Source: a virus
Virus record (IMG/VR): IMGVR_UViG_3300020036_002545
Reading direction: 5' to 3' (one strand)
DNA length: 40,181 bases
In this document: one piece after another, positions 4,624 through 40,181 of the stretch
Numbering within the stretch: the first letter of the stretch is position 1
How the letters are laid out: each line of letters begins with the position of its first letter
Program-made: the position numbers and the translations under genes
Notes under the pieces: model-generated
Databases searched by the model: none
The model's input: the letters and a program-made list of their open reading frames with translations, nothing else
What the model was told of the DNA's origin: nothing

Positions 4624-4648
4624 GCACCGTCATTTAGGCGGTGTTTTG
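4624..4648 (+). terminator. Rho-independent terminator
   Basis: gcaccg-(9 nt)-cggtgt hairpin followed by TTTTG. Confidence 0.5.
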
Positions 4649-4657
4649 TTATCCACA
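4649..4657 (+). promoter_or_regulatory. Perfect DnaA box TTATCCACA (extended GTTATCCACAG), followed by promoter TTGCGT-N16-TAAAGT (4676-4703)
   Basis: Exact 9-mer. The -10 element ends 7 nt before ATG 4710, so the transcript could be leaderless. Confidence 0.6.
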
Positions 4658-4709
4658 GTTTGATAAATTTTACACTTGCGTAAAGTTATCTATATGATAA
4701 AGTGTATAT

Positions 4710-24204: not shown

Positions 24205-24222
24205 CAATCAAGAAGTAATATT

Positions 24223-25197: not shown

Positions 25198-25201
25198 ATA
25201 T

Positions 25202-26635
25202 ATGGACAAATTAAAAAACGCATTTGTAAAATCTATGGGCGTAGCAGACAAAATAAACAGTGCTGCTGGTAAAGTAACTACTGGATTAAACGCACTATCC
25301 AATCCTTTTGCGGCTGCTTCGCTCGTAGCAGGTAAACTTAAAAAAAGCCCAACCGTAGCACCTACTCCTATATCTAGCGCACAAAGTAATTTCACAAATA
25401 ACTTTGGTTCTTCTTCTAACACTTCCCCAGTACCAACTACAATTACACCTCCTGCAAATCCATCACAGTCTTCTGCTAAAAATCAGTACACGCAGTCTCT
25501 TGGTGCTACACCAAATAAGGAAATAACTACACAAGGTGGTGCAGTACTAAATGCAGACGGAACGATTAAGACACCTGCTCCTGTTCCTACTGGAATGCAA
25601 ACACCCACACCTACTCCGACGACTCCTACAGCTCCTACAGCTCCTACAGCGCGTGATAACTACACATCTGCATATACGAAGTACATAGAATCACTAAAAC
25701 CAAGCGAAAGCGTAGTAAACGCTAAAAAGACGTATAACGATTACGTTGCTAGTTTGAATAAAACAACAGCAGGACTTGAGGGTCAAGGTCGTGGAATAAC
25801 TACAGGAATCGTACGAGGACAGCAAGAAAAGCTCCTTGGACAGACACAGCCTGAACTTGCACGCTTACAGGGTGAGATAGGAATTGCACAAGGAGAGCAA
25901 ACAGCAGCTTCGGAAGCAGCTAAAGCTGGTCTTGGTCTACAGAAAGACTTGATGACGTTCGATAGTGATGCAGAGAAATTAGCCTACGACCGTGAAAAAG
26001 CACAATACGATAGAATGACAGACGCGCAAAAAACTGCTTTTGACCAGCAGTACAAGACTGATACCCTCGCGCAAAACAAACTAGAAGCTGACAGAACATT
26101 TGCTGAAAACAAACGTCAGTTTGGTCTTGAATACGCGCTTAAAGCACAAAAACAAGCGGCTGATGTAGCTGAAAAAGCGCAAAGTTCGGAACCGTCGCCA
26201 TTACAGCAAGGTGCGCTTACTTCTGCACAAGATTTGCTTAAAAAGTTTGATGCTGGTACTGGTACTTCTGCTGTTGGTAAATCATCTTTCCTCGGTTCAC
26301 TCGGATATGGACTTATTCCAGGTACAGAACGTGCTGACTTCGTAACCCAGTTTGATAACTTCAAAGCACAAGCAGACTTGGCTAATGCAAAATACCTCAA
26401 AGGCTCTGGTGCGGTGTCAGATGCGGAGCGTAAGCTTTTGAGTAACGCTACCAAGCTAGACAGAAGCCAGTCAGAAAAGGAGTTCCGAAAATCTCTCAAT
26501 GCACAGATTGCTCTTATGGGAGGTGACGTAACAGTTACACTCATAAATCCAGTAACAGGAGAATCAACGCAAGTACAGACAAACAAACAAGGTATAGAAA
26601 ACGCATTAAAAGATAAAATAGACGTAATCTACTAA
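25202..26635 (+). CDS. Internal virion / ejection-type protein
   Basis: 477 aa. Pro/Thr linker PTPTPTTPTAPTAPTA, a long Q/A/K coiled region, then C-terminal GSGAVSDAERKLL. Confidence 0.4.
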   Translation: MDKLKNAFVKSMGVADKINSAAGKVTTGLNALSNPFAAASLVAGKLKKSPTVAPTPISSAQSNFTNNFGSSSNTSPVPTTITPPANPSQSSAKNQYTQSLGATPNKEITTQGGAVLNADGTIKTPAPVPTGMQTPTPTPTTPTAPTAPTARDNYTSAYTKYIESLKPSESVVNAKKTYNDYVASLNKTTAGLEGQGRGITTGIVRGQQEKLLGQTQPELARLQGEIGIAQGEQTAASEAAKAGLGLQKDLMTFDSDAEKLAYDREKAQYDRMTDAQKTAFDQQYKTDTLAQNKLEADRTFAENKRQFGLEYALKAQKQAADVAEKAQSSEPSPLQQGALTSAQDLLKKFDAGTGTSAVGKSSFLGSLGYGLIPGTERADFVTQFDNFKAQADLANAKYLKGSGAVSDAERKLLSNATKLDRSQSEKEFRKSLNAQIALMGGDVTVTLINPVTGESTQVQTNKQGIENALKDKIDVIY

Positions 26636-28893: not shown

Positions 28894-28894
28894 C

Positions 28895-30886
28895 ATGCCC
28901 GATGAAATCCTAAAAAGAGACCAAAATAGAGTAACCGTATTGGCTGGTGTCACAAACGACTCAGACATGGATATTACCATGCTCCGTGTTGACCCAATAA
29001 CAAAAAGATTGTTAGTGGCTGCTACGGGTGGAGGAGGTAGTGCAGTCTGGGGTTCAATCACAGGAACACTCTCCGACCAGACAGACCTACAATCAGCTCT
29101 CGACGCTCGTGTTCCCTACACAGGCGCAACAGCAAACATAAATCTCAACACTCGCAGTATCACGCAAAACCTCATTGACGATACTAGAGGTTATGAAATA
29201 CAAAACACAGGAGGTGATACTCGCGCAATGCTCGGTCTTGGTGCTACGTCAGATGGCTTCCTAAATATTTTCAAAGCCGACAACTCTCTCGGTTTTTCTT
29301 CAGAGGGTGGTAACACATTCACATCTGCACTTTCTATCAACCTCCCAACGTCATTTAGCTACACATCTAACAACCCACTTTCGATAGGTTGGTCGGGTAA
29401 CACATATGGAGGTGGATATATTCAAAACCAATCAACTGGGACATCGGCTTCAGCTGACCTGATTCTTGGAGCAGATAACGACGGAGTAGCCGCGACTGGT
29501 CACTTCATAAACCTCGGTATCAACAACTCCAACTATGCTGGAGTTCTTGGTACTGCTGGAGATGGGTATCTTTACACTTCTGGTGGACACCAATATATTG
29601 GCACAGACACAGCAGGTAAAAATCTCTATTACCAAATAGGTGGTCTTTCGTCTACCAACGTAATCGGTGCTACAAACTCTACAGGTACTGGAATGGGTAC
29701 ACTATCCCCTACCGCACGTTTCCACGCAGTAGGAACAGCTGCTATCGGTACGCCAGTATTCACTGGTGCTGGTCTAAATGACCTTACTGCAGGAGGAACA
29801 TACATCGGAGGTACAAACTCTAACTACACCGTAACTATCTCTACAGTAAGCTCAATATACACATCGGCAGTTAGTGCAGGAGGAAGTGCGTGGGCTATCG
29901 GTGATACGTTCACAATTTCTGGTGGTACATCTGGTACTGGTATAGTCACTGCTGTATCCGCTGGCGCTGTGACTGCATACACAATTACAAACACAGGTTC
30001 TGCGTACACGACTGGTGTAAAAACGTGTACTCGAACGTCTGGTTCTGGTACTGGTCTTTCTATAAACATTACAGTTATTGCAGACAAGTTTAACTGGTTG
30101 AAGACTGGTGGAGCAACAACATTTAGTGTTGTTATAACTGGTGCAGCACAAACACTTGCAGAGGGTGTAACAATCACATTTGCGGCGCAGTCTGGTCACA
30201 CGGCATCAAACTCGTGGGCAGTACCAGTCACTGCTGTAAACCTATTCACTGGTGTCAGTAATACTGGTGCTGTAAACGCGTCTATCTCAAACTCTGGTGT
30301 TGCAACACTATCTGGTGATACTGCTCGTTTTGTCGCAGTAAACACATCGAATAGTCAATCTGTAACTATTTCTCCGACATCTATAGTAATTTCAACAACC
30401 ACAGGTGCAAACGGAGGAACTATAATTTCCGGTGGAGCTAACTTGCTTCAATTTGATAGTCCATTCCGTGTAACGTCACAAACGGTTCGCCCATACATGA
30501 ACGGCGGTGCATATAGCTCGACTGTCGGACGTATTACGTCAGCAGAAAACACGACAATGGGTATCGGATTCCCTGCAGCGAACTCGTTTAACTTTATAGT
30601 AAACTCAATCGAGCACGCTCGTCTTGACCTAAATGGTATGTTGCTCGGTTCAACTACTACAGTGAAAATGGGGCTATGGGGTAAAACTCCGATTGTACAG
30701 CCTGTAACTGCTCCATATACACCAGATGCACAATCTGTTGCATACACTGGTATCGACAACTTGCAGCCAGGCACTGTGTACGCAACCGTTGCTGATTTAA
30801 ACACGCTTCGTGTCGCGTATGAAAACCTACGGGTTGCATATGACGATTTACGAACACTCGTTATTTCAACAGGATTAGTAGCTTAA
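28895..30886 (+). CDS. Tail fibre / receptor-binding protein 2
   Basis: N-terminal MPDEILKRDQNRVTVLAGVTNDSDMDITMLRVDPITKRLLVAATGGGG is shared with 19798 and 19209; T/G/S-rich body of 663 aa. Confidence 0.7.
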   Translation: MPDEILKRDQNRVTVLAGVTNDSDMDITMLRVDPITKRLLVAATGGGGSAVWGSITGTLSDQTDLQSALDARVPYTGATANINLNTRSITQNLIDDTRGYEIQNTGGDTRAMLGLGATSDGFLNIFKADNSLGFSSEGGNTFTSALSINLPTSFSYTSNNPLSIGWSGNTYGGGYIQNQSTGTSASADLILGADNDGVAATGHFINLGINNSNYAGVLGTAGDGYLYTSGGHQYIGTDTAGKNLYYQIGGLSSTNVIGATNSTGTGMGTLSPTARFHAVGTAAIGTPVFTGAGLNDLTAGGTYIGGTNSNYTVTISTVSSIYTSAVSAGGSAWAIGDTFTISGGTSGTGIVTAVSAGAVTAYTITNTGSAYTTGVKTCTRTSGSGTGLSINITVIADKFNWLKTGGATTFSVVITGAAQTLAEGVTITFAAQSGHTASNSWAVPVTAVNLFTGVSNTGAVNASISNSGVATLSGDTARFVAVNTSNSQSVTISPTSIVISTTTGANGGTIISGGANLLQFDSPFRVTSQTVRPYMNGGAYSSTVGRITSAENTTMGIGFPAANSFNFIVNSIEHARLDLNGMLLGSTTTVKMGLWGKTPIVQPVTAPYTPDAQSVAYTGIDNLQPGTVYATVADLNTLRVAYENLRVAYDDLRTLVISTGLVA

Positions 30887-30896
30887 TAATAAACAT

Positions 30897-31136
30897 ATGA
30901 GAGATATAACAGAAAACATAGCAGAAGATGCTATCGCAAAAAAAATAGTAGTAAAAATAGTAGCTGACGATTTACAAAGTTACGCTGATTTTAACTACAC
31001 GCTTTTAAACGCCGAGGGAGAAGAGATTGAAACAGAGACAATTAAGTGCGAGGGAGAAGATTATGCAAATTGGGATAATAGTAACGAGTACCCATACACG
31101 TTTGTCTCTGGTAAACTTGGAATAACGATACTGTAA
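30897..31136 (+). CDS. Small acidic protein
   Basis: 79-aa ORF. Confidence 0.5.
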   Translation: MRDITENIAEDAIAKKIVVKIVADDLQSYADFNYTLLNAEGEEIETETIKCEGEDYANWDNSNEYPYTFVSGKLGITIL

Positions 31137-31534
31137 TGCCTTACGATGAAAAAGTAACATTTAAAGAACTTATGGACGCACACCTCGTTCCCATACATGA
31201 ACGCCTAGAACAAAATAGTGCGCTATTTAAGGAAACCCGCGAGGACATGAAAGAAGTAAAACAAATACTTACCGAAGTTCAATTACAAACTACACGCACA
31301 AACGGGCGTGTTAGTAAACTAGATGAATGGTCTGAGGGAGCAAAAAAAGTTATTGAGAACAATACTACAGCAGTCGCAGATTTAAAATGGTGGCGCGGTG
31401 CAGTTATCTGGGGTGCAGGTATTCTTGTGACATTTGTTTGTATATCTTACCCAGTGCTAAAATACATTGTGCAGAGACAAATAGAAGAAACAGTGCAAGC
31501 ATCATTAGCACAATTTAACATCGTAGTAAAATAA
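31136..31534 (+). CDS. XhlA-like lysis-associated membrane protein
   Basis: Coiled N-terminal part, then NNTTAVADLKWWRGAVIWGAGILVTFVCI, comparable to the XhlA C-terminal NNTW.WR...G TM segment. Confidence 0.45.
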   Translation: MPYDEKVTFKELMDAHLVPIHERLEQNSALFKETREDMKEVKQILTEVQLQTTRTNGRVSKLDEWSEGAKKVIENNTTAVADLKWWRGAVIWGAGILVTFVCISYPVLKYIVQRQIEETVQASLAQFNIVVK

Positions 31535-31535
31535 C

Positions 31536-31649
31536 ATGAAAAAAACTATAACAATGACACGCAAGCCAAAGCCTACTATCACTCTCACTCGCAAGCCACA
31601 GCCAGCACCTCGCAAGGTAGATATTCGCACAGTAGCCTATAAGAAATAA
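31536..31649 (+). CDS. Small highly basic protein (37 aa)
   Basis: MKKTITMTRKPKPTITLTRKPQPAPRKVDIRTVAYKK, with internal TRKP.P repeat; fills the gap before the endolysin. Confidence 0.3.
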   Translation: MKKTITMTRKPKPTITLTRKPQPAPRKVDIRTVAYKK

Positions 31650-31650
31650 T

Positions 31651-32223
31651 ATGGAACGCCTACAACTCTACTATCCATGCCGACCTTATAGTCTAAACCA
31701 AGGCTTCGGAGAAAATGCAAACGGATTCTACAAAGAACTCGGTATGCTCGGTCATAACGGTTGGGATTTATTCGCACCAGACGGCACATTAGTACGCGCA
31801 ACTCATGATGGCGTAGTCACGTTCTGCGGACACGATGGCTCTGGTGGACTTGGTGTTGTTATCCGTACAAAGAAGCCATTTATCTACCGCGACGGTGAAG
31901 CATTTTACAAAACAATATATTGGCATTTAAAGGAGGGAACTATCCGCGTCAAGCCAGACCAAGAAGTAGTAGCGGGAACTATCATAGCTCTCGCCGACAA
32001 CACAGGAATGTCCACAGGTTCACATCTTCATTTCGGTCTCAAACCTATGATGCAAGGCGAACAATCATGGCAATGGTACAATACAGAGCAAGACAACGGA
32101 TACCAAGGTGCAATAGACCCACTCCCATACTTCACAGGTGAATATGCGGACGTTGTGTATCCTGGTCTCGGTGCGCGTGCCTTTCAAGCATTACTAGATT
32201 TAGTTAAAAGTAAAAAAATATAA
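31651..32223 (+). CDS. M23-family peptidase (endolysin)
   Basis: HxxxD motif (GHNGWD) and HxH motif (SHLHFG), with the intervening THDGVV. Confidence 0.8.
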   Translation: MERLQLYYPCRPYSLNQGFGENANGFYKELGMLGHNGWDLFAPDGTLVRATHDGVVTFCGHDGSGGLGVVIRTKKPFIYRDGEAFYKTIYWHLKEGTIRVKPDQEVVAGTIIALADNTGMSTGSHLHFGLKPMMQGEQSWQWYNTEQDNGYQGAIDPLPYFTGEYADVVYPGLGARAFQALLDLVKSKKI

Positions 32224-32224
32224 T

Positions 32225-32497
32225 ATGGACTATAATTCAACAATAGAAGTTCTCGGAAACGCTGCTCTTTTAATGTCGTATGTTTGTGCGCTCACTATCG
32301 CCGTGATGCAGATTGTAAAGCAATTTAAAATTGCAAAACGATTTCTTCCGATTATTGCAATCATAATAGCAATAGTGATTACATTTCTTTTTGTTCCACA
32401 GTTTTCTGTGTCTATAGTCTTGATTGGTTTTGTATCTGGTTTGACAAGTATGGGATTGTTTACTGGTATAAAAAATACCGTTTCAAAGGGGTTATAA
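32225..32497 (+). CDS. Holin
   Basis: 90 aa with three hydrophobic spans and a charged C-terminus; directly after the endolysin. Confidence 0.65.
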   Translation: MDYNSTIEVLGNAALLMSYVCALTIAVMQIVKQFKIAKRFLPIIAIIIAIVITFLFVPQFSVSIVLIGFVSGLTSMGLFTGIKNTVSKGL

Positions 32498-32542
32498 TAC
32501 CCACGCCGACCTCTCACATTATTATTGCCGTGTCGGCAAGGA

Positions 32543-32567
32543 AACAGCATCTTCGGGTGCTGTTTTT
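32543..32567 (+). terminator. Rho-independent terminator
   Basis: aacagca-tcttcggg-tgctgtt followed by TTTTTG. Confidence 0.7.
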
Positions 32568-32572
32568 GTTCG

Positions 32573-32581
32573 TTATCCACA
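32573..32581 (+). promoter_or_regulatory. Perfect DnaA box TTATCCACA (GTTATCCACAG) overlapping the -35 position of a TATACT -10 (32603-32608)
   Basis: Exact 9-mer. The -10 ends 7 nt before ATG 32615, so the transcript may be leaderless. An alternative promoter is TTGACA(32588)-N17-TTATAT. Confidence 0.55.
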
Positions 32582-32614
32582 GTCGCATTGACAAAAATGC
32601 GATATACTTTTTAT

Positions 32615-32878
32615 ATGGTTTTATTTAGAGATTGTTTCGTGTGCGAAACACCAGAAAAGACAAATAGTTTAGAGCGAGTATTTTTTTGCAAGGAGTGTCT
32701 GTCATCCCAAGACAAACAGCGAGAAGTCGAAATAGAGTGCTACGTCTGCAAAGACATCATTATTAGAAAAAACATAATCAAAAATGGAACATGTTATCCG
32801 TGTAGACGAAAGAAGCGTAATGAATACCAGAGGAAATGGGAAGCTCTGTTTAATCTGCAAAAACAAGCTGAAAAATAA
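32615..32878 (+). CDS. Double zinc-ribbon small protein
   Basis: CFVC-x13-CKEC and CYVC-x14-CYPC; alternative ATG at 32597. The upstream part of track ORF 32525 crosses the terminator and is rejected. Confidence 0.55.
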   Translation: MVLFRDCFVCETPEKTNSLERVFFCKECLSSQDKQREVEIECYVCKDIIIRKNIIKNGTCYPCRRKKRNEYQRKWEALFNLQKQAEK

Positions 32879-32966
32879 CATGCAGGTATATTTCTGCTCT
32901 ACAGAGTGCGGAAAGAAAGGTGCGAGTATCACATACATGCCCTATAAAGCCGTAAAACGCTCATAG
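32820..32966 (+). CDS. Zinc-ribbon small protein (start uncertain)
   Basis: CLIC-x12-CSTEC. It overlaps the previous gene by 59 nt. Alternative start 32880 sits in a TAACATG junction. Confidence 0.35.
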   Translation: MNTRGNGKLCLICKNKLKNNMQVYFCSTECGKKGASITYMPYKAVKRS

Positions 32967-32978
32967 CAAGGTTTAAAT

Positions 32979-33128
32979 ATGAAAAACGACACTATACACC
33001 ACTCACGCACTAAAACGGTAAATAAGCCCTATGTCTGCGTATCTTGTAAAAAGGAGACATCGCAGTTATATTCTGGAAGTTGTCCACAGTGCGAGTTTGC
33101 CAAACGAAAGGAAAAACGTAAACTATAG
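32979..33128 (+). CDS. Zinc-ribbon small protein (49 aa)
   Basis: CVSC-x11-CPQC then a basic tail KRKEKRKL; not in the track (<60 aa). Confidence 0.45.
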   Translation: MKNDTIHHSRTKTVNKPYVCVSCKKETSQLYSGSCPQCEFAKRKEKRKL

Positions 33129-33193
33129 ATGTCAGTATTTCGATAGTCTACTGACAAGCATATACATCATGTAAGCCTTATATGATGTATCGG

Positions 33194-33281
33194 AGAGGCA
33201 TAGAATACGGTGCTGCTCCGCTTCCACGGAGGTCTGCTACTACAGACGGACGAAAGTCCAAGCGCTGTGCTCTGTGCCTCT
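33194..33281 (+). ncRNA. Structured RNA R1: about 21-bp closing helix capped by three short hairpins
   Basis: agaggca/tgcctct, extended by 14 more pairs of which 4 are G-U. The hairpins are ctccg/cggag, gtctg/cagac and ggac-GAAA-gtcc. It is flanked by the 9-bp direct repeat TATCGGAGA. Confidence 0.45.
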
Positions 33282-33286
33282 TATAT

Positions 33287-33358
33287 CGGAGAATAGCTTA
33301 ATGGTGAAGCAATCGTCTTATACACGATAGACTGATGGTTCAAGTCCATCTTCTCCGA
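33287..33358 (+). tRNA. tRNA-Ile (anticodon UAU, reads AUA)
   Basis: Hand-folded cloverleaf:
- acceptor cggagaa/ttctccg
- D arm gctt-aatggtg-aagc
- anticodon arm atcgt-cTTATac-acgat
- T arm gatgg-TTCAAGT-ccatc
No encoded CCA. Confidence 0.8.
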
Positions 33359-33360
33359 CA

Positions 33361-34116
33361 ATGAACAAAATCATACAGGGTGACTGTTTAGAAGTAATGA
33401 AAAAAATAGGAGATAATTCCATAGATTTAACAGTAACCTCTCCACCGTATGATAATTTACGAGACTATAACGGTTATACTTTTGACTTCAAAAATATTGC
33501 AAAAGAACTTTTTAGAGTAACAAAGCAAGGTGGTGTAGTTGTTTGGATTGTTGGTGATGCAACAATTAAAGGAAGTGAAACAGGAACATCATTTAAACAA
33601 GCACTTTACTTTAAGGAGATTGGATTTAATTTGCACGATACAATGATATGGAAAAAGCAGACTTTTACTGATACAGGGTCGCTCCAGTGTAGATACGGTG
33701 GAGTATTTGAATATATGTTTATTTTGTCAAAAGGAAAAATAAAAACATTTAACCCCATAAAAGACAGATTAAATAAAAAACCGAATATTAAAAAAAACGG
33801 AAGTATTAGACAAAAAGATGGTACAACAAGACCTCAATCATCTTTAGGAAAAAAAGCAAACATTTACGGTCAGAGATTTAATGTTTGGGAAATAAACACG
33901 GAAATTTCAAATAGTAATAGATTTCACCCAGCACAATTTTCTGAAAAACTAGCTGAAGACCACATATTATCTTGGAGTAACAAAGGCGACATCGTACTTG
34001 ACCCGATGGCAGGAAGTGGGACAACATTAAAAATGGCAAAGAAAAACGATAGAAATTATATTGGAATAGAAATATCGGCAGAGTACATAAAAATTATTGA
34101 AGAAAGACTAAAATAG
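33361..34116 (+). CDS. N6-adenine/N4-cytosine DNA methyltransferase (beta class)
   Basis: Motif IV TSPPY near the N-terminus and motif I DPMAGSGTT near the C-terminus. Confidence 0.8.
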   Translation: MNKIIQGDCLEVMKKIGDNSIDLTVTSPPYDNLRDYNGYTFDFKNIAKELFRVTKQGGVVVWIVGDATIKGSETGTSFKQALYFKEIGFNLHDTMIWKKQTFTDTGSLQCRYGGVFEYMFILSKGKIKTFNPIKDRLNKKPNIKKNGSIRQKDGTTRPQSSLGKKANIYGQRFNVWEINTEISNSNRFHPAQFSEKLAEDHILSWSNKGDIVLDPMAGSGTTLKMAKKNDRNYIGIEISAEYIKIIEERLK

Positions 34117-34156
34117 TTATCAACATATTGTAGCAATCCTACTTAAAAGTTATAGT
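34117..34156 (+). promoter_or_regulatory. Degenerate DnaA box TTATCAACA abutting the TAG stop, plus promoter TTGTAG-N17-TATAGT
   Basis: Same TAG+box context as at 36600 and 38239. The predicted start near 34163 coincides with the first base of helix R2. Confidence 0.45.
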
Positions 34157-34163
34157 ATATGTA

Positions 34164-34240
34164 CTTCCCTGCGGTATTGTGCTTTCAAGCATAAATACGT
34201 TCACAAAGGAAGCCTAAAGTATAGTTTTCTTGCAGGGAAG
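34164..34240 (+). ncRNA. Structured RNA R2 (9-bp closing helix)
   Basis: cttccctgc (34164-34172) pairs with gcagggaag (34232-34240). Confidence 0.35.
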
Positions 34241-34244
34241 ACTA

Positions 34245-34358
34245 TGGGGAGTGGTAGAGTGGCAATACAAAAATGTGCAAGATGGCCGTGAGTAGTATTT
34301 ATACGAAAGCAATAAGCTACACCTTTTTCCTCGCAAGGTTCGATTCCTTGCCTCCCAA
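34245..34358 (+). ncRNA. tRNA-like element with expanded anticodon domain (114 nt)
   Basis: Acceptor tggggag/cctccca has 6 of 7 pairs. D arm is gta-gagtggcaa-tac. The T arm caagg-TTCGATT-ccttg is canonical. A 65-nt insert, including a GAAA-capped hairpin at 34292-34320, replaces a normal anticodon arm. Confidence 0.4.
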
Positions 34359-34435
34359 CACCGCAGTCTGTATGACTGCCGTACTTACAAGCACGATACG
34401 CTTGTACATGCCCGTTGCTTCGGGTTTTCTAAACA

Positions 34436-34575
34436 CACCACTATCGCTGGGCTTTGCCGTAACAATTCGTTCAACATCTTCTCAACATATCTTTGCCGGA
34501 TCGATGGAGAGACTGAACGATAAATAAGGCAATCGACTCAAAAGAGTACGACTGAGGCTTTCCGTGATAGTGGTG
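34436..34575 (+). ncRNA. Structured RNA R3 (10-bp closing helix around about 120 nt)
   Basis: caccactatc (34436-34445) pairs perfectly with gatagtggtg (34566-34575). Hairpins at 34363-34379 and 34386-34406 lie upstream. Confidence 0.35.
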
Positions 34576-34578
34576 TAT

Positions 34579-34656
34579 CACTCCATAGTTTAATGGTAAA
34601 AACCAAATCCTCATGTAAATGAGTAGCATATGCAGGTTCGATTCCTGCTGGGGTGG
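34579..34656 (+). ncRNA. tRNA-like element with a collapsed anticodon loop (possible pseudo-tRNA or decoy)
   Basis: Acceptor cactcca/tggggtg has 7 pairs including one G-U. D arm is gttt-aatggtaa-aaac. T arm is gcagg-TTCGATT-cctgc. The middle folds as ctcat-GTAA-atgag (4-nt loop). I found no 5-bp stem with a 7-nt loop. Confidence 0.45.
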
Positions 34657-34686
34657 CTGTGCAATTATTATTTAGCTATATAAAAC

Positions 34687-34908
34687 ATGGATTCAGGAAT
34701 ATCTATCGGAGAAGCTCGCGTTCGTACAGCGTTCAATCCAAGCGACGATGCAGCAGTAACAGTTATCAAAAACAAAACTGCCGAGCTTATCAACCTCTGT
34801 GAGACACTTAAAGCAGCAGACCCTCGACTTGCTTCAATAGCTATGACTACATTTGAAGAAGCAGCTATGTGGGCAGTGAAGCTCGCAACAACAAATCCAT
34901 CAGCATAA
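34687..34908 (+). CDS. Small all-helical protein (73 aa)
   Basis: ORF between the tRNA-like element and tRNA-Arg. The motif FNPSDDAAVTVIKNKTAELINLCE...TTFEEAAMWAVKLAT is familiar from small phage proteins, but I cannot name the family. Confidence 0.6.
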   Translation: MDSGISIGEARVRTAFNPSDDAAVTVIKNKTAELINLCETLKAADPRLASIAMTTFEEAAMWAVKLATTNPSA

Positions 34909-34919
34909 GCTGGTGGTAT

Positions 34920-34992
34920 GGGTAAATAGCTCAACAGACAGAGCAACGGACTTCTAAGCCGTAGGTTGTAGGTGCAATTCCTACTTTACCCT
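34920..34992 (+). tRNA. tRNA-Arg (anticodon UCU, reads AGA)
   Basis: Hand-folded cloverleaf:
- acceptor gggtaaa/tttaccc
- D arm gctc-aacagaca-gagc
- anticodon arm acgga-cTTCTaa-gccgt (one A-G mismatch)
- T arm gtagg-TGCAATT-cctac
The elbow is atypical. Confidence 0.7.
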
Positions 34993-34993
34993 C

Positions 34994-35203
34994 ATGTATA
35001 TACCAAAAGACAAACAATGGTTTTGTGATAGAATAGGTAAAACTATTTATCGTGATACACTAAAAAAGTGTTGCGAAACGTGTGACCATGTAGCTACAAA
35101 CGGTTTAATAGTTACAGACAAAGACCACGCTGATTATCTTGCTATGATAGACATGGATTTTGGCGCAGAGGGTATTTATTCAAATTACAGAGATACTTTA
35201 TAG
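34994..35203 (+). CDS. Hypothetical Cys-containing protein
   Basis: 69-aa ORF; the ATG starts 1 nt after the tRNA-Arg end. Confidence 0.5.
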   Translation: MYIPKDKQWFCDRIGKTIYRDTLKKCCETCDHVATNGLIVTDKDHADYLAMIDMDFGAEGIYSNYRDTL

Positions 35204-35255
35204 GAAAGTTACTACGGTTTATTAGAAAATGAGATAAACTAAGTAAGATGGCAGT

Positions 35256-35333
35256 ACAAAAGGGAAGGGTAGTTATTCTTAACAATCCTGCGGCATAGAG
35301 AATACATTGTCGTTAGACCCCCTTTCCTTTTGT
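35256..35333 (+). ncRNA. Structured RNA R4 (14-bp closing helix plus inner 6-bp hairpin)
   Basis: acaaaagggaaggg pairs with ccctttccttttgt (one G-U). The inner hairpin is tattct/agaata. Terminator 35350-35375 follows. Confidence 0.4.
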
Positions 35334-35349
35334 GTTGCTTTCAAAGTAA

Positions 35350-35375
35350 AAGACCGCTAAAAACGGTCTTTTTTA
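35350..35375 (+). terminator. Rho-independent terminator
   Basis: aagaccg-ctaaaaa-cggtctt followed by TTTTT. Confidence 0.75.
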
Positions 35376-35507
35376 ATACACACAAAAAACGCCACAAGTG
35401 CAAAGAAGATAATTGTCTCCATATAGAATGTTTCCTGTAGTGTACTAGGTTATTGCCGAAGCCGTCAAAAACTATTGACACAAATATACTTTTCATGTCA
35501 CTATAGA

Positions 35508-35598
35508 CAAGTACCTCCAGTTTTAGCTACAGTTAGGTACTCACATTGTATACAAAGAGCCAGCGACCGACTTTTGATAACGGGCTGGCTTTTCTTTT
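35508..35598 (+). ncRNA. Candidate small RNA (two hairpins, own terminator)
   Basis: TTGACA at 35475-35480 lies upstream, but the -10 is unclear. The hairpin is agtacct/aggtact (35510-35541). The terminator is agccagc/gctggct plus TTTTCTTTT (35558-35598). Confidence 0.3.
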
Positions 35599-35601
35599 AC
35601 G

Positions 35602-35639
35602 TTATCCACAGAAGACAAACAAGAAACGTGTACTACAAT
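35602..35639 (+). promoter_or_regulatory. Perfect DnaA box TTATCCACA (35602-35610) abutting the -35 region; -10 TACAAT (35634-35639)
   Basis: Exact 9-mer, 3 nt after the terminator T-tract; AAGACA-N16-TACAAT. Confidence 0.55.
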
Positions 35640-35678
35640 GTACGCATGATTCTACTTGGAAACATACTTGAAGAAAGA

Positions 35679-35993
35679 ATGAAAGCCTACACGCTTGACC
35701 CAAAAGGCGTAGAGGAACAAGTAAAAGCCCGAGGGAAAGAGTACAACAAAAAATGGAACGACGCAGTGCAGTTTTTCCAAAAGCAGATAAACCGTGAACG
35801 TGAAAAAGATGGTATGAAGCCATTAGGGTTTATGCCGATACGGTACAAGCTCATGGCGTTGCCAGAGATAGACGAACTTCGTTGGTTTTACCATCACTGT
35901 ATAAAATACTCTAAGACAAAAGACAAGATGGGTAACTGGAACACGTTTAGCAAGTGTTTCTGGGGTGCGCTGGACGCAAAGAAATGTAAATAG
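35679..35993 (+). CDS. Hypothetical protein (104 aa)
   Basis: Internal ATG of track ORF 35475..35993. The upstream part crosses a terminator and the DnaA box, and starts at the TTG of TTGACA. Confidence 0.55.
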   Translation: MKAYTLDPKGVEEQVKARGKEYNKKWNDAVQFFQKQINREREKDGMKPLGFMPIRYKLMALPEIDELRWFYHHCIKYSKTKDKMGNWNTFSKCFWGALDAKKCK

Positions 35994-36017
35994 TATAATT
36001 TATACATATTTTTCTAC

Positions 36018-36030
36018 AACTAGCAGTCAA
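36018..36030. repeat. Left arm of 13-bp perfect inverted repeat bracketing gene 36040..36315
   Basis: aactagcagtcaa is the reverse complement of ttgactgctagtt at 36328-36340. Confidence 0.85.
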
Positions 36031-36039
36031 GTCAAGTCT

Positions 36040-36315
36040 ATGTCTAGCAAAAATAAAAACAATGTTTCTAATGGTGTTGCAGTAAGTGCTAATTGTTCTC
36101 CGAATGATGTCGTATACGTTTTAAAATCATATTCAATTCAAGATTTGGAAGGGAAAATACTTACATTTATCGATGCAAGTATTCAAGACCCTATACAAAG
36201 AAAAGCTTTAAAAGATTTGCTCCGTCCTATGGTTTGGACTTGGGCAATCGAAAGCAATATGTCGAGTTATTATGAAGTGAAAGAAGTTAGTGTTTGTTCA
36301 GGGCGTGTCAATTAA
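36040..36315 (+). CDS. Hypothetical protein (91 aa)
   Basis: Internal ATG of track ORF 35965; TATAAT at 35994-35999 lies upstream. Confidence 0.5.
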   Translation: MSSKNKNNVSNGVAVSANCSPNDVVYVLKSYSIQDLEGKILTFIDASIQDPIQRKALKDLLRPMVWTWAIESNMSSYYEVKEVSVCSGRVN

Positions 36316-36327
36316 AAACTAATAATT

Positions 36328-36340
36328 TTGACTGCTAGTT
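36328..36340. repeat. Right arm of the 13-bp inverted repeat
   Basis: See 36018-36030. Confidence 0.85.
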
Positions 36341-36350
36341 ATATAACGAT

Positions 36351-36602
36351 ATGTCTTGGAATTATAGAATGATACGGACAAAAGAAAATGAAACTTATGT
36401 ATATCATGTACATGAGGTTTATTATGATAAAAATGGCAAGCCAAAGAGTTGGTCAGAAAACCCTATTACACCTTACGGAGAATCTCAAAGCGATGTCTAT
36501 GAAGACTTGATACTTATGCAAAAATCTTTCCAGCAAAAACCTTTCGATATTGTAGATGACAAACTTGTTGAAATAAATGTAGGTAAAATTTCTGGTAAAT
36601 AG
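36351..36602 (+). CDS. Hypothetical protein
   Basis: 83-aa ORF. Confidence 0.55.
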   Translation: MSWNYRMIRTKENETYVYHVHEVYYDKNGKPKSWSENPITPYGESQSDVYEDLILMQKSFQQKPFDIVDDKLVEINVGKISGK

Positions 36603-36611
36603 TTTTCCACA
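36603..36611 (+). promoter_or_regulatory. DnaA-box variant TTTTCCACA (fits TTWTNCACA) abutting the TAG stop
   Basis: TAGTTTTCCACAG parallels TAGTTATCCACAG at 38239. Candidate promoter TTGAAA(36639)-N17-AATAGT. Confidence 0.45.
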
Positions 36612-36670
36612 GATGTTGGCTTGCATTATTCTGTAGGTTTGAAATAATGTAAGTGTTCGCAAATAGTTCA

Positions 36671-36737
36671 CATGACTCGTTACGGAGAGTCGTGGGCAGT
36701 AATCGCTCGCTCAGCCGTAACTGGTCGGGCGATTTTT
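36671..36737 (+). ncRNA. Candidate small RNA (8-bp hairpin plus terminator hairpin)
   Basis: The first hairpin is catgactc/gagtcgtg (one G-U). The terminator is aatcgc...gcgatt followed by TTTTTG. The predicted transcription start is near 36674. Confidence 0.4.
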
Positions 36738-36817
36738 GTTGGTCTAACCAGCTTCTCATATTGAAGACTAGCGGACATTAAAAGGCTAGGGCAAATATGC
36801 AATACGGATACAAGATA

Positions 36818-36933
36818 CCGAAGTTCAAGTTTTGCTCTTTATCAACTAAATATCATCTATTCATATCTTTAAAGAGAAACGGATAGTAGGAAAACAAAGG
36901 GTTTCGGGCATAAATCATATGGCTTGAACTCGG
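36818..36933 (+). ncRNA. Structured RNA R5 (11-bp closing helix with a bulge; inner 7-bp helix)
   Basis: ccgaagttcaag pairs with cttgaactcgg; the inner helix is ctcttta/taaagag. No credible ORF on either strand between 36612 and 37002. Confidence 0.3.
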
Positions 36934-37002
36934 ACTGGAAAACGGCTTGGGGGTTGGTGTAGTGTATTACACTTAGTATTACAAATAATAGATAAATAAA
37001 AA

Positions 37003-37290
37003 ATGAAAAACGTGAATTATTTGGCTTTGAAATATCGTTGCAAGCATGAACATGACTATATGCTTAATAGGTTTGATAGGATTTTTTACACTATTAAATT
37101 CATGATTTGTTGGAATTTAAAACGACAACCAAAAGAGTGCCAGTACGACGGTATTCATGTGGCATGTTTTAATTTCCGTAACGATTTCTCACTGGATGCA
37201 ATGAACGCAAAGAGCTGGGATTATATAAGAGTAGGCCCAGGTTATTTTACTAATTGGTGGGCGTATTGTGGCGATGATAGTAACTATTAA
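37003..37290 (+). CDS. Hypothetical protein
   Basis: 95-aa ORF. The 13-nt palindrome agtgtaTtacact (36961-36973) lies upstream. Confidence 0.5.
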   Translation: MKNVNYLALKYRCKHEHDYMLNRFDRIFYTIKFMICWNLKRQPKECQYDGIHVACFNFRNDFSLDAMNAKSWDYIRVGPGYFTNWWAYCGDDSNY

Positions 37291-37293
37291 ACG

Positions 37294-37431
37294 ATGAAAA
37301 AGTACAAGAAACACCCATCTAAATTATTTCAAGTACGTCTATCAGAAACAGAATACGAAGAAGTCATAGCAGAGATTAAAAAAACAGGACTAACTCGCAG
37401 AGCTTATATATTAGAAGTAATTAAAAAATAA
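37294..37431 (+). CDS. Ribbon-helix-helix-like small protein (45 aa)
   Basis: KLFQVRLSETEYEEVIAEIKKTGLTRRAYILEVIKK has a strand-helix-helix layout; the TAA abuts the next ATG. Confidence 0.4.
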   Translation: MKKYKKHPSKLFQVRLSETEYEEVIAEIKKTGLTRRAYILEVIKK

Positions 37432-37620
37432 ATGTCATCACCAAAACCCGACTTCATGCAAAAGAACCGCTATAGAAAACTAGAAAAGCTAGAGGTAAGA
37501 CTCTACGATAAAGATTGTCCTGTGTGTGGAACAAACGAAGTGATTTTCCTTTGGAGCGAAGAACTAAAAAAGTACACAACTAGTCGCTGTGGGAGTTTGA
37601 ACTGTAAGTATGGAAACTAG
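37432..37620 (+). CDS. Zinc-ribbon small protein
   Basis: CPVCG...CGSLNC; 62 aa. Confidence 0.5.
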   Translation: MSSPKPDFMQKNRYRKLEKLEVRLYDKDCPVCGTNEVIFLWSEELKKYTTSRCGSLNCKYGN

Positions 37621-37623
37621 CCT

Positions 37624-38241
37624 ATGAAAATACTAGTAGCCTGTGAAGAGAGCCAAGCAGTCTGTAAAGCGTTCCGTGCGAAAGGACACGAAGCATACTC
37701 GTGCGACATACTGCCTTGCAGCGGAGGACACCCAGAGTGGCACATACAGGGTGATGTTATTGAGCAATTAGAAAAGGAGTGGGACATGATTATTGCACAT
37801 CCACCTTGTACTGATTTAGCTGTTAGCGGGGCTAGGCATTTTGAGCGTAAGCGAAAGGATGGTTCCCAGCAAAAAAGCATTGATTTCTTTATGGCATTTA
37901 CTAAAGCAAAATGCGAAAAGATAGCAATAGAAAACCCAGTATGTATCATGTCTTCGATTTACCGAAAACCAGACCAAATAATACAGCCATATCAATTTGG
38001 ACATGAAGCTCGAAAAACAACATGCTTGTGGCTTAAAGGACTCCCTTTATTGAAGCCAACAAAAATAGTAGGTCAAGGTGAAATAGTAATCATGGGCGAT
38101 GGTAAAAAATATCCTAAATGGTCACATGATGCAGTCGGAGAGAACGGAAAAAAGTTAGCGTATAACTCTAAAGAAATCAAAACATTACGCTCAAAGACAT
38201 TCCAAGGCATAGCCGATGCTATGGCAGAACAATGGGGATAG
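37624..38241 (+). CDS. Compact C5-cytosine methyltransferase-like protein (second paralogue type)
   Basis: MKILVACEESQ N-terminus, motif IV AHPPCTDLAVSG, motif VI IENP, C-terminal RSKTFQGIADAMAEQW; 205 aa. Confidence 0.55.
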   Translation: MKILVACEESQAVCKAFRAKGHEAYSCDILPCSGGHPEWHIQGDVIEQLEKEWDMIIAHPPCTDLAVSGARHFERKRKDGSQQKSIDFFMAFTKAKCEKIAIENPVCIMSSIYRKPDQIIQPYQFGHEARKTTCLWLKGLPLLKPTKIVGQGEIVIMGDGKKYPKWSHDAVGENGKKLAYNSKEIKTLRSKTFQGIADAMAEQWG

Positions 38242-38250
38242 TTATCCACA
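38242..38250 (+). promoter_or_regulatory. Perfect DnaA box TTATCCACA abutting the TAG stop
   Basis: TAGTTATCCACAG; exact 9-mer. Confidence 0.6.
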
Positions 38251-38258
38251 GTCTACAC

Positions 38259-38287
38259 TTGCACACTTCTCCACTACCTGCTACAGT
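38259..38287 (+). promoter_or_regulatory. Sigma70-like promoter TTGCAC-N17-TACAGT
   Basis: Shares the upstream string TACACTTGC with the promoter at 4671-4681. Confidence 0.45.
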
Positions 38288-38301
38288 AGAGGAGTAAAGG
38301 C

Positions 38302-38370
38302 ATGGTCGTTGAAAACATAATAGTAATAGATGGTGCGTGTGGCGGAATAGTAACGCCCCAAAACTCCTGA
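38302..38370 (+). CDS. Candidate 22-aa leader peptide
   Basis: MVVENIIVIDGACGGIVTPQNS. It is preceded by AGGAG (38290-38294), one of the very few SD-like sequences in the genome. It is translated across the left arm of helix R6. Confidence 0.3.
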   Translation: MVVENIIVIDGACGGIVTPQNS

Positions 38371-38505
38371 AATATCGGAGGGAGGGTTAGGTTGATTGCA
38401 AGGTGACTATACGAGTAAAAAACAAGACGGCGCAAAGGGAGGCCAGGTTGCGCTTTGAAACTCCCCCTCGTCAAATCCTTACCACGCACACCATCTATTA
38501 CTATT
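38319..38505 (+). ncRNA. Structured RNA R6 / 5' leader: about 22-24-bp closing helix around about 140 nt
   Basis: aatagtaatagatggtgcgtgtgg pairs with ccacgcacaccatctattactatt (one mismatch, one G-U). The inner hairpin is gcgcaa/ttgcgc. Confidence 0.45.
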
Positions 38506-38543
38506 TCAATAGCGAACAGAGATTAATAACTAACATTACATCT

Positions 38544-38684
38544 ATGTACGGAACATACATCAACACTGAGCGTGCAACCACATGGGCTGGCATCAAGAAA
38601 GAAAAGGAAGCAGTAGACACAAAGAAGTCACTTGTACTAGGTTTCGCTATCGTAGCAGTTATCTTCATAGCTCTATGGTCATAA
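38544..38684 (+). CDS. Small C-terminally anchored membrane protein (46 aa)
   Basis: Internal ATG of track ORF 38403: MYGTYINTERATTWAGIKKEKEAVDTKKSLVLGFAIVAVIFIALWS. The upstream part lies inside helix R6. Confidence 0.4.
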   Translation: MYGTYINTERATTWAGIKKEKEAVDTKKSLVLGFAIVAVIFIALWS

Positions 38685-38872
38685 AGAAATTCACCATCCT
38701 ACGCAATAGACATAAAAAGATAGGCTCACAAGAGCCAGACTTTTTACTCTCAGCGAAGATTGGCGACGTATTCCAAAACATCGGCGGTGGATGGGAAAAG
38801 AAAGACAAGAACGACCGTGACTATCTCGCAGTAGAACTCTCAGACATCTATTCAATAACAATCAAAGTCTAA
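38675..38872 (+). CDS. DUF736-like protein
   Basis: QEPDFLLSAKIGDVFQNIGGGWEKKDKNDRDYLAVELSD resembles the DUF736 pattern PD.RI....EIGAAW.K.....DYLSV.LDD. Confidence 0.4.
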   Translation: MVIKKFTILRNRHKKIGSQEPDFLLSAKIGDVFQNIGGGWEKKDKNDRDYLAVELSDIYSITIKV

Positions 38873-39021
38873 TGCCAGAGATAAACTACTTCGACACTCC
38901 ATACGAGCGTCGCAAAGGCAACACAGGCTTTGCAAAGTTCATGGACGGGATACTCAAAGCAAAAGAGAAGCGTGAAAAATTAGAAAAATTAAACGAAGAC
39001 ACACCAAATGGAAACGAATAA
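38872..39021 (+). CDS. Hypothetical small protein (49 aa)
   Basis: TAATG overlap upstream; 14-nt overlap with the SSAP gene. Confidence 0.35.
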   Translation: MPEINYFDTPYERRKGNTGFAKFMDGILKAKEKREKLEKLNEDTPNGNE

Positions 39022-39736
39022 AGTATCTGAGTTTCTAAAACTCAACGTGAATGAGAAAACAGAGAAAAAGAATGGTCTTACATATCTCTCGTGGGCTTGG
39101 GCGTGGACTAAGACTATCGAAGCAGACCCAGACGCTACCTATGAGGTAAAAATGTTTGACAACAAACCATATATCTACGACGAGAACCTCGGATACATGG
39201 TTATGACATCAGTAACTTTTGATGGAAAGACAAAGATAATGCAGCTTCCTGTAATGAATAGCGCTAACAAGGCTCAAAAGGCTGTTGCCTACACTTACAA
39301 AGGTATCCAGTGGGTAAATGGTCAAAAGACAGAGGTTGATAAAACAGTAGATGCAGCGACTATGTTTGACATCAATACAGCAATCATGCGCTGTCTCACA
39401 AAAAACCTAGCTATGTTTGGACTCGGATTGTACATTTACGCAGGTGAAGATTTGCCAGACGTAGAAACACCGCCACTCCCCCCTCAAAACCCTCCTACGA
39501 GCCCTATAGAGCCTCCTACAGCCCCTCCTACAGCCCCTCCTAAAGCACCTCCAAAGCCAAAGGTAACGCCAGAACAGGCAGAAGCTAAGGCAAAGGTGGC
39601 TATCGAGGAAGCAGACACAGAAGAGAAGCTAGAAAAGATTAAAACACAGGTTAATGCATCTACTCTCCTCGGAGACGGTGCAAAAGCTGATTTGACGGAG
39701 ATGATTCTTACTAAGATTAATGGTTTCACAAAGTAA
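39008..39736 (+). CDS. Rad52-like single-strand annealing protein (Sak/DUF1071 type)
   Basis: GLTYLSWAWAW and NLAMFGLGLYIYAGEDLP motifs; Pro-rich PPTAPPTAPPKAPPKPK linker and an acidic tail. Confidence 0.7.
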   Translation: METNKVSEFLKLNVNEKTEKKNGLTYLSWAWAWTKTIEADPDATYEVKMFDNKPYIYDENLGYMVMTSVTFDGKTKIMQLPVMNSANKAQKAVAYTYKGIQWVNGQKTEVDKTVDAATMFDINTAIMRCLTKNLAMFGLGLYIYAGEDLPDVETPPLPPQNPPTSPIEPPTAPPTAPPKAPPKPKVTPEQAEAKAKVAIEEADTEEKLEKIKTQVNASTLLGDGAKADLTEMILTKINGFTK

Positions 39737-39737
39737 T

Positions 39738-40028
39738 ATGTCAGAAAAGAAATTCGCAGAAGGTATCTATTTCGAGAAGCGCAACGGTTCACCTGCATTC
39801 GTAGTAGGAAAACTCTCTGTAAAGGCAGAGAAGTTCATCCCATTCATCCAAGCTAACGTAAACAACGGAGGCTATGTGAACATGAACATCATGAAAGGAC
39901 GCGAAGAAGGAAAGTTCTACATCGAAGTAGACACATGGCAGCCTAAAGGAGCAAATAACAACAATAACACTGTTATGAACGTAGATTACCCAGAAAGCGA
40001 TATTAACTTTGCAGACTCTCCTTTCTAA
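39738..40028 (+). CDS. Putative ssDNA-binding protein
   Basis: 96 aa directly after the SSAP. Asn-rich linker and C-terminal DINFADSPF resemble the acidic/aromatic SSB C-terminal tip (DDDIPF). Confidence 0.45.
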   Translation: MSEKKFAEGIYFEKRNGSPAFVVGKLSVKAEKFIPFIQANVNNGGYVNMNIMKGREEGKFYIEVDTWQPKGANNNNNTVMNVDYPESDINFADSPF

Positions 40029-40030
40029 CC

Positions 40031-40181
40031 ATGAATAAAAAAAGAATAGAACTACTCGGAACGCTTCACATCAAAAAAGTACCAGAAGCACTCAAAGATA
40101 AAATATATAGTCATATAAAAGACCGCCGTGGTATGTCACAGTTTGTACGAGAGGCTATGGAGGAGAAATTAGCACGCGATA
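40031..40181 (+). CDS. Ribbon-helix-helix protein, N-terminal part (continues at 1..150 in the circular molecule)
   Basis: The ATG 40031 frame runs into the terminal repeat and matches frame 1 of bases 1-150. Confidence 0.6.
   Translation, partial: MNKKRIELLGTLHIKKVPEALKDKIYSHIKDRRGMSQFVREAMEEKLARD
40061..40181. repeat. Terminal direct repeat copy 2
   Basis: Identical to 1-121. Confidence 0.95.

Follow-up and report, generated by a model that had tools for sequence, protein, structure and literature searches.

Candidate promoter-proximal DnaA boxes in an uncultivated phage and their possible link to host DnaA

The window analysed here, IMG/VR virus record IMGVR_UViG_3300020036_002545 (40,181 nucleotides), comprises a complete circular phage genome (40,060 bp) and a terminal (assembly) overlap of 121 bp. 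At the boundaries of its transcription units it carries a recurring nine-letter word, TTATCCACA, which is identical in sequence to the R1/R4-type DnaA box of E. coli. An earlier note on this DNA had pointed to these copies in a phage that seemed to lack any polymerase, primase, helicase or initiator gene. None was found in Pfam and PHROGs scans of the tested early genes, several small open reading frames (ORFs) being unscanned. What, then, could words resembling the binding site of a bacterial replication initiator do in such a genome? The best explanation, to which we assign a probability of about 0.6, is that the extended elements GTTATCCACAG are promoter-proximal DnaA boxes which couple phage transcription to host DnaA.

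Boxes and promoters in the window

The word TTATCCACA occurs four times (4649, 32573, 35602 and 38242), always on the + strand. In dinucleotide shuffles of the window the mean is 0.26 copies, and four copies were reached in none of 100 shuffles. All four copies are extended as GTTATCCACAG, which is the most repeated 11-mer of the window apart from two coding tandem arrays; its reverse complement has no copy in the window. Two one-mismatch copies, TTTTCCACA at 36603 and TTATCAACA at 34117, lie in the same context. All six boxes are intergenic, in a genome of which about 7% is intergenic, and thus the number, strand, extension and placement given in the earlier note were confirmed. A G precedes the box (position -1) at all six sites and follows it (position +10) at five. 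Four perfect boxes and one TTTTCCACA fit the DnaA-box consensus, and TTATCAACA is one base outside the relaxed form TT(A/T)TNCACA. The count of the relaxed word TTWTNCACA against shuffled controls, proposed in the same note, gave a weak enrichment (9 versus 4.5 expected, with 5 of 100 shuffles reaching 9), and for boxes with up to one mismatch the genome as a whole shows no enrichment (16 versus 10.9 expected). This indicates that the signal consists of a few perfect, placed sites and not of a general excess of box-like words.

Downstream of the boxes, a -35/-10 pair scoring at least 8/12 starts within 1-11 nt at all six sites (Table 1), whereas this is the case for 14-16% of random or intergenic positions (about 0.16 by chance per site); two of the six sites score 10/12. 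The distance from the box to the next gene, on the other hand, ranges from about 35 nt (35602) to about 460 nt. Thus the box is tied to the promoter and not to the gene. The surroundings of the boxes are otherwise unrelated in sequence among the six sites, which are therefore not copies of one duplicated module. The six promoter-like pairs stand at the head of the structural/late module, the early recombination module and the accessory cassettes with methyltransferases, tRNAs and Acb2/Tad1. DnaA-regulated promoters (type mioC, dnaAp2, nrdA) are defined by a box that lies in a sigma70 promoter or closely upstream of it, and the window sites, with their promoter-like pairs, show this placement.

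The upstream side is equally regular. Terminators with hairpin and U-run (minimum free energy (MFE) z-scores of -3.5 to -4.5) precede three of the boxes. At the other three (34117, 36603, 38242) a TAG stop codon adjoins the box and supplies its A-G flank, and no intrinsic terminator is present. This arrangement and the link to promoters at unit boundaries had been described before and hold. Of the two boxes that had been placed on or against the -35 element, the one at 35602 lies 1 nt from it, whereas the one at 32573 lies 6 nt upstream.

Table 1. Boxes, terminators and promoter-like pairs at the six sites (window coordinates)
Feature	Position	Strand	Context
GTTATCCACAG box	4648..4658	+	1 nt past U-run of terminator hairpin 4622-4646
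Promoter-like TTTACA-18-TATGAT, 10/12	4669..4698	+	11 nt past box; heads small genes, TerS, GroEL, TerL, structural genes
Intrinsic terminator	32540..32567	+	ends late operon, after holin gene 32225-32497
GTTATCCACAG box	32572..32582	+	
Promoter-like TTGACA-18-TATATG, 10/12	32588..32617	+	6 nt past box; heads Zn-finger ORFs, tRNA-Ile, N6/N4 methyltransferase
G-TTATCAACA variant box	34116..34125	+	A-G flank supplied by TAG stop of methyltransferase gene
Promoter-like TTGTAG-17-TATAGT	34128..34156	+	2 nt past box; heads 420-nt non-coding stretch, tRNA-Thr, Acb2/Tad1, tRNA-Arg, ORF 34994-35203
Terminator hairpin and U-run	35555..35598	+	immediately 5' of the 35602 box
GTTATCCACAG box	35601..35611	+	
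Promoter-like AAGACA-16-TACAAT, 9/12	35612..35639	+	1 nt past 9-mer; spacing class of E. coli mioC
G-TTTTCCACA-G, mioC-type variant box	36602..36612	+	adjoins TAG stop of gene 36351-36602 (PMC5835720)
Candidate promoter TTGCAT-17/18-(A)TAATG(T)	36621..36650	+	9 nt past box; weakest of the six; about 350 nt non-coding next
GTTATCCACAG box	38241..38251	+	adjoins TAG stop of methyltransferase gene 37624-38241
Promoter-like TTGCAC-17-TACAGT	38259..38287	+	8 nt past box; heads structured leader 38290-38543 and early recombination module

Two of the promoters have further features. A palindrome, TCGCATT-GACAAA-AATGCGA (32583-32602), contains the -35 element TTGACA behind the 32573 box and may serve as an operator or form a second small hairpin. 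Behind the 35602 box, the ATG at 35646 of a 115-aa ORF follows the -10 element TACAAT (35634-35648 region) by about 7 nt, and the mRNA of this ORF may be leaderless.

Box and promoter in other viruses and in bacteria

To place the window sites in a wider frame, IMG/VR was scanned with the pattern 9-mer-N(0-12)-TTGACA-N(16-18)-TATAAT. The forward box TTATCCACA gave 114 loci, the reverse box TGTGGATAA 106 and the mioC-type box TTTTCCACA 36, versus 11 for ACTCATCTA, a scrambled 9-mer of the same composition. Hence a box with a perfect promoter is about 10-fold enriched over the scramble in viral contigs, in both orientations. After de-duplication, 107 distinct forward sites and 72 distinct reverse sites remained; the gap to the -35 element is 8-10 nt in 72% of the former and 5-7 nt in 51% of the latter. 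The forward sites have A at -2 in 79%, G at -1 in 62% and G at +10 in 54%, and these flanks are mirrored at the reverse sites. No second box was found inside the 8-10 nt gap or upstream. Very few of the contigs with box and promoter have proteins in common with the window. The occurrence of the same architecture in many unrelated phage lineages points to a host factor and not to the binder of one phage lineage. The share of contigs poor in Shine-Dalgarno (SD) motifs is 82% for the forward-box viral loci, 39% for the reverse-box loci, 10% for the scramble controls and 100% for the relatives of the window; the reverse form is frequent in SD-using phage contigs (61%).

Near-identical strains of the phage are present in five JGI samples; since their accessory region is 100% identical, they are uninformative on the motif. 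More distant relatives (L081-L089, L103-L111) have 76-85% amino acid identity in GroEL and 90-95% in the major capsid protein (MCP). Among these, boxes stand at promoters in L082 (TTATCCACA-c-TTGACA-18-TATAAT), L087 (TTTTCCACA-g-TTGACA-17-GATAAT), L089 (TTATCCCCA-N11-TTGACA-17-TATAAT) and L081 (TTATCCACA-N7-TTTACA-18-TATACT). The near-perfect TTGACA/TATAAT elements show that these phages have canonical sigma70 promoters. The G at position -1 is retained at 10 of 10 sites. The conservation of the motif in relatives, which the earlier note had left to be examined, is thus real but partial, as only some orthologous promoters have a box.

That note had also spoken of cassette boundaries. This is true of transcription units. 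As recombination joints, i. e. promoter/terminator cassette boundaries of the PeSL-like type, the boxes were rejected, because at the two junctions examined the breakpoints are not at boxes: the homology between the window and L095 breaks near 4530, inside gene 4233-4616, with an identical box region in both, and the cassette difference to strain L096 (window 121-1797) is not bounded by boxes. In L096 (JGI 3300020050), which is 100% identical over 22225-40181, about 230 bp (17957-18186) replace this part of the window with its several small early ORFs.

Other searches for relatives were less productive. Blastn against INPHARED revealed no close relative among isolated phages, and queries with two box-carrying contigs gave nothing useful. 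Queries with the endolysin and tail proteins found no close relative either, and the MCP search of genome contigs had no match. The relatives retrieved through Sak (80 loci) were discarded as a different lineage in which most matches to TTATCCACA fall in coding sequence or are unrelated, such as the YPQ peptide repeats of L026.

The same pattern of box and promoter was scanned in 185,579 species genomes, where at least 120 loci were found. Among the matches listed, the taxon proportions of which may be biased, 56 of 120 are labelled Patescibacteria (candidate phyla radiation, CPR), 13 Gammaproteobacteria, about 30 Bacillota and 4 Bacteroidota. In the CPR loci the frequency of SD-like motifs (0.13) is at the background level. 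The loci labelled Gammaproteobacteria are probably mislabelled CPR, to judge from their scarcity of SD motifs and from at least four sites near-identical to CPR sites. Such pairs of a Gammaproteobacteria-labelled metagenome-assembled genome (MAG) and a Patescibacteria contig are L253 and L245, L312 and L251, L313 and L233, and L240 and L271. The SD-poor MAGs with the third-party annotation (TPA) 'uncultured Gammaproteobacteria' are L231, L240, L243, L253, L308, L312, L313, L315-L317, L338 and L343.

In the CPR and the Gammaproteobacteria-labelled loci, box promoters precede ftsZ, rpoB, tuf, lexA (two cases), rpmE, ksgA, a Mur ligase gene and hrcA. In four Saccharibacteria or unclassified MAGs (L302, L255, L336, L342) a DnaA box is separated by 8-9 nt from TTGACA-ggtGAAC-N4-GTTCacc-TATAAT; we read the GAAC-N4-GTTC palindrome in the spacer as a LexA box of the Cheo type. 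For CPR box promoters without an ORF no Rfam match was found just downstream, the nearest being a 23S rRNA gene about 400 nt away in L283. In Bacillota, dnaA lies in the same locus in 10 of the 30 cases among the matches listed, and in these loci the box is 7-12 nt (mostly 10-12) from TTGACA.

These data bear on the host. An SD-like motif precedes 3 of 46 window ORFs, which is under the background of 12%. The window combines this absence of SD motifs with canonical sigma70-type promoters, and the fetched Patescibacteria loci do likewise. Because of the missing SD motifs, the canonical promoters and the shared box architecture, a Patescibacteria bacterium is our best guess for the host, and probably the correct one. 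Neither the absence of SD motifs nor this pointer to the host was within view of the earlier note. A Bacteroidota host or promoter type was rejected: the element TAnnTTTG is not associated with the boxes, Bacteroidota provide the few loci given above, and the promoters of the relatives are of the TTGACA/TATAAT type.

DnaA as the candidate binder and its rivals

Not only the core of the phage boxes but also their flanks agree with known DnaA sites. In E. coli oriC, R4 reads AG-TTATCCACA-GT and R1 reads TG-box-GG, and G stands at -1 in all four R boxes. DnaA sites occupied in vivo in E. coli have the form gag/aag-TTATCCACA-g (PMC11317965). The two best binders of DnaA are TTATCCACA and TTTTCCACA (PMC5835720), which are the main box forms found here. 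In one CPR DnaA, which is 40% identical to the E. coli protein, the domain IV motif P...GGRDHTT..H is conserved. If DnaA is the binder, TTATNCACA variants would be expected to follow C > A, G > T at position 5 and to tolerate A/T at position 3.

A possible mechanism is that the host replication initiator DnaA binds these high-affinity boxes and, positioned at about -41 to -55, modulates RNA polymerase on the adjacent promoter. Phage transcription would thereby follow the DnaA-ATP, replication and growth state of the host. The orientation-specific gap to the -35 element suggests a stereospecific contact with RNA polymerase. Because of this spacing, and because the growth genes tuf and rpoB carry the site in CPR, we read the data as favouring activation or licensing. 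Yet mioC and dnaAp2, the closest characterised cases, are both repressed. In addition, DnaA on a box in this orientation could block read-through from upstream at 34117, 36603 and 38242, as at asnC-mioC.

The layout at E. coli asnC-mioC resembles the phage sites: the asnC stop codon is followed after 21 nt by TTTTCCACA-G-GTAGAT-17-TACAAT, so that gene end, box and -35/-10 pair succeed each other with the same orientation of the box relative to transcription. The box has the form TTTTCCACA at mioC and the forms TTATCCACA and TTTTCCACA in the phage. DnaA represses mioC through its boxes (PMC5835720), and the box upstream of mioC blocks read-through from asnC (Schaefer and Messer 1988, 1989, as cited in PMC10950094). 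There are differences, however. The mioC -35/-10 pair starts 1-2 nt past the box, whereas the gap is mostly 8-10 nt in the wider viral set. At mioC, DnaA binds cooperatively to the box, a partner 3 bp upstream of it and additional weak boxes (PMC11317965), whereas the phage boxes are single; and mioC is one chromosomal locus beside oriC, whereas the phage has six sites across its genome.

Promoters of dnaA itself (E. coli dnaAp2, Bacillota dnaA loci) likewise have a consensus box upstream of the -35 element in forward orientation, and DnaA-ATP represses dnaAp2 (PMC5835720). They contain several boxes and lie in the origin region, whereas the phage and CPR sites are isolated boxes before unrelated genes. 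A phage promoter linked to the host initiator is also known from lambda, where host DnaA stimulates pR transcription and the activation of ori-lambda (PMC8203912). Lambda, however, has one such promoter and its own initiators O and P, whereas the window has six promoter-like sites with boxes upstream of the -35 element and no recognisable initiator. The DnaA boxes of lambda are located downstream of pR and act via RNA polymerase's beta subunit. For the mechanism, the monomeric activators MarA, SoxS and Rob offer an analogy, as they recognise an asymmetric single site in either orientation and prefer a distance to the -35 element that is specific to each. The likeness ends there, since they belong to an unrelated protein family and bind an unrelated 20-bp site.

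Several points weigh against the DnaA reading. That DnaA is the binder we infer solely from the match in sequence. In living E. coli cells, DnaA is found almost only on pairs of boxes 2-3 bp apart, and of 32 single boxes of consensus sequence only 13 fall within DnaA-bound regions (PMC11317965). At the six window sites no partner box is present at 2-3 bp (the upstream 9-mers match in 0-4 of 9 positions), nor is there an excess of partner boxes among the 234 distinct forward sites of the matches listed from the viral and genome sets. In the one CPR dnaA locus examined (L251), degenerate box-like words only were seen beside dnaA and no cluster of consensus boxes. The gaps between box and -35 element in the window are scattered (11, 6, 2, 1, 9 and 8 nt in genome order, with equal-scoring alternatives at 36603 and 38242), and several of the -35/-10 assignments are weak (8/12). 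The enrichment in viral contigs was judged against a single scrambled control, and the bacterial taxon counts share the possible bias mentioned above. The orthologous portal promoter has no box in the window (12071), L081, L084 and L088; hence the box is facultative and dispensable for promoter function. Finally, the forward architecture shows a strong bias towards SD-poor, CPR-like contigs, which could stem from a clade-specific factor or polymerase feature instead of universal DnaA.

Such a factor would make the motif a clade-specific promoter element or operator, recognised by the C-terminal domain of the alpha subunit or the sigma factor of the RNA polymerase of SD-poor hosts or by a dedicated regulator, while the identity with the DnaA box would be coincidental or secondary. 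We consider this unlikely. It would account for the SD-poor share of the forward form compared with the controls, for the concentration in CPR genomes (among the matches listed), for the tight gap of 8-10 nt, which is the position of distal UP subsites, and for single boxes in place of the double boxes that E. coli DnaA occupies in vivo. But the equal enrichment of both orientations, with mirrored flanks and a spacing of their own, is not the behaviour of an UP element. The reverse form, moreover, is common in SD-using phage contigs, the forward form marks dnaA loci in Bacillota, and measured DnaA preferences agree with the 9-mer as well as with its A-G/G flanks and its main variant TTTTCCACA. 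A regulator encoded by the phage itself, e. g. the 67-aa winged-helix protein of the early region (1749-1952; HTH_39, E = 5e-5), could bind the motif at the six promoter-like sites to time the cassettes. This we regard as most improbable: an asymmetric single 11-mer is unlike typical operators of winged helix-turn-helix or ribbon-helix-helix proteins, the same architecture recurs in over 100 contigs with hardly any proteins in common with this phage and in bacterial chromosomes, and a co-occurrence of the winged-helix gene with the motif across phages was not seen.

If DnaA does bind, it need not act on the promoter. The earlier note had offered three roles, namely an origin, DnaA-gated expression and datA-like titration, of which gated expression is the one that agrees with boxes tied to promoters and enriched about 10-fold in this arrangement. 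The boxes might still recruit host DnaA and the helicase loader to start phage replication, perhaps aided by nearby transcription. The tested early genes would leave room for this, as their scans gave only Sak, NinB, NinG, methylases and small ORFs of unknown function, and the stimulation of ori-lambda by DnaA is a precedent. Even so, we think it quite improbable. The six single boxes lie 1-6.4 kb apart, no 400-nt stretch is dense in strong boxes, the number of boxes with up to one mismatch is not raised, and there are neither partner boxes nor iterons, tandem arrays being present only inside ORFs, where they encode peptide repeats. Furthermore, the same architecture stands before chromosomal ftsZ, rpoB and tuf, and relatives have the box at only some orthologous promoters. 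With no cluster, no partner box and coding arrays, the oriC-like and datA-like readings lack their defining feature. An origin of the oriC or plasmid type is thus not supported, although an unwinding element was not searched for, and neither is a datA-like titration locus, for which no cluster exists anywhere in the genome and no search for an IHF site was made. The array of 18-nt tandem repeats is likewise no set of iterons, as it lies within ORF 5269-5895 and encodes GIEAG[W/E/S].

Alternatively, box-bound DnaA could serve as a roadblock that stops read-through from upstream and insulates the cassettes from each other, the nearby promoter being incidental. Each box marks the exact end of the upstream unit, in three cases at a stop codon without an intrinsic terminator, and the block of the asnC transcript occurs in the same layout and orientation. 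Insulation alone, however, leaves the orientation-specific distance to the -35 element in the large sets unexplained, and strong intrinsic terminators are already present at three window sites. As the main function it is therefore improbable; a function added to the promoter-proximal role of DnaA seems more likely.

The phage genome and the meaning of the boxes

All genes of the window are on a single coding strand. The late region comprises TerS, a GroEL-like chaperonin, TerL, portal, MCP and tail genes, an M23 endolysin and the holin. From 32.5 kb onward follow the accessory cassettes with Zn-finger ORFs, tRNA-Ile, an N6/N4 methyltransferase, tRNA-Thr, an Acb2/Tad1-like protein, tRNA-Arg, small ORFs and a second methyltransferase. 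The early recombination module (DUF736, Sak, then a C5 methylase, NinB and NinG) runs across the genome ends. The chaperonin (8699-10252, 517 aa, Cpn60_TCP1) is encoded directly upstream of TerL, with a small ORF (8481-8699) alongside, and the gene order GroEL-TerL-portal is also present in the distant phages L377, L208, L133 and L210. The TerL orthologues of three relatives (L084:3555-4543, L087:7175-8097, L089:3039-3961) carry an insert of about 0.9-1 kb that is absent from the window (10252-11847); an intron, an intein and a homing-endonuclease insertion are possible explanations.

Some further observations concern the accessory and early regions. Behind the 34117 box variant, between tRNA-Thr and tRNA-Arg, ORF 34687-34908 encodes an Acb2/Tad1 hairpin domain protein of the anti-CBASS/Thoeris sponge family. 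Long non-coding stretches lie directly 3' of three box promoters (38290-38543, 36650-37002 and 34157-34578), without an Rfam match in any of them. In the first, 38318-38341 pairs with 38491-38514 (23 bp; MFE z = -2.6). Two positions, 34337 and 18167, have the tRNA T-loop word GGTTCGATTCCT but no callable tRNA. ORF 5269-5895 contains twelve 18-nt repeats (5437-5652) that are translated into GIEAG[W/E/S] hexapeptides, the copy number of which varies among otherwise near-identical strains (proteins of 190, 208 and 220 aa). At 862-1044 a 6-nt repeat present 30 times encodes a low-complexity ORF of about 94 aa (GSGSG/GYGDG).

We are not aware, as far as the searchable literature shows, of any paper that ties DnaA boxes to Patescibacteria or describes this promoter architecture in phages; its breadth across uncultivated phages and CPR is to that extent undescribed. 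For CPR bacteria and their phages it amounts to a promoter model of box, 8-10 nt and TTGACA-17-TATAAT. CPR bacteria have very few transcription factors. A broader idea, tentative and open to considerable doubt, is that DnaA acts in CPR as a global promoter-proximal transcription factor by binding single AG-TTATCCACA-G sites whose distance to the -35 element is fixed for each orientation, at many core promoters (ftsZ, rpoB, tuf, lexA and others), and that CPR phages, the present one among them, copied this architecture. Single boxes set stereospecifically beside RNA polymerase would differ from the paired-box binding of E. coli, and RNA polymerase might replace the second DnaA protomer there.

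If this is true, the whole programme of CPR phages would follow the DnaA state of the host, and the combination of box, sigma70 promoter and absence of SD motifs could serve as a signature for assigning uncultivated phages to CPR hosts. Provided that DnaA binds, a phage without recognisable replication proteins would have put six promoter-like sites under the control of the host initiator, and thus have a simple way to sense whether its host can replicate. By the same token, there would be a DnaA-centred transcription network in Patescibacteria, a group in which regulation is almost unknown.

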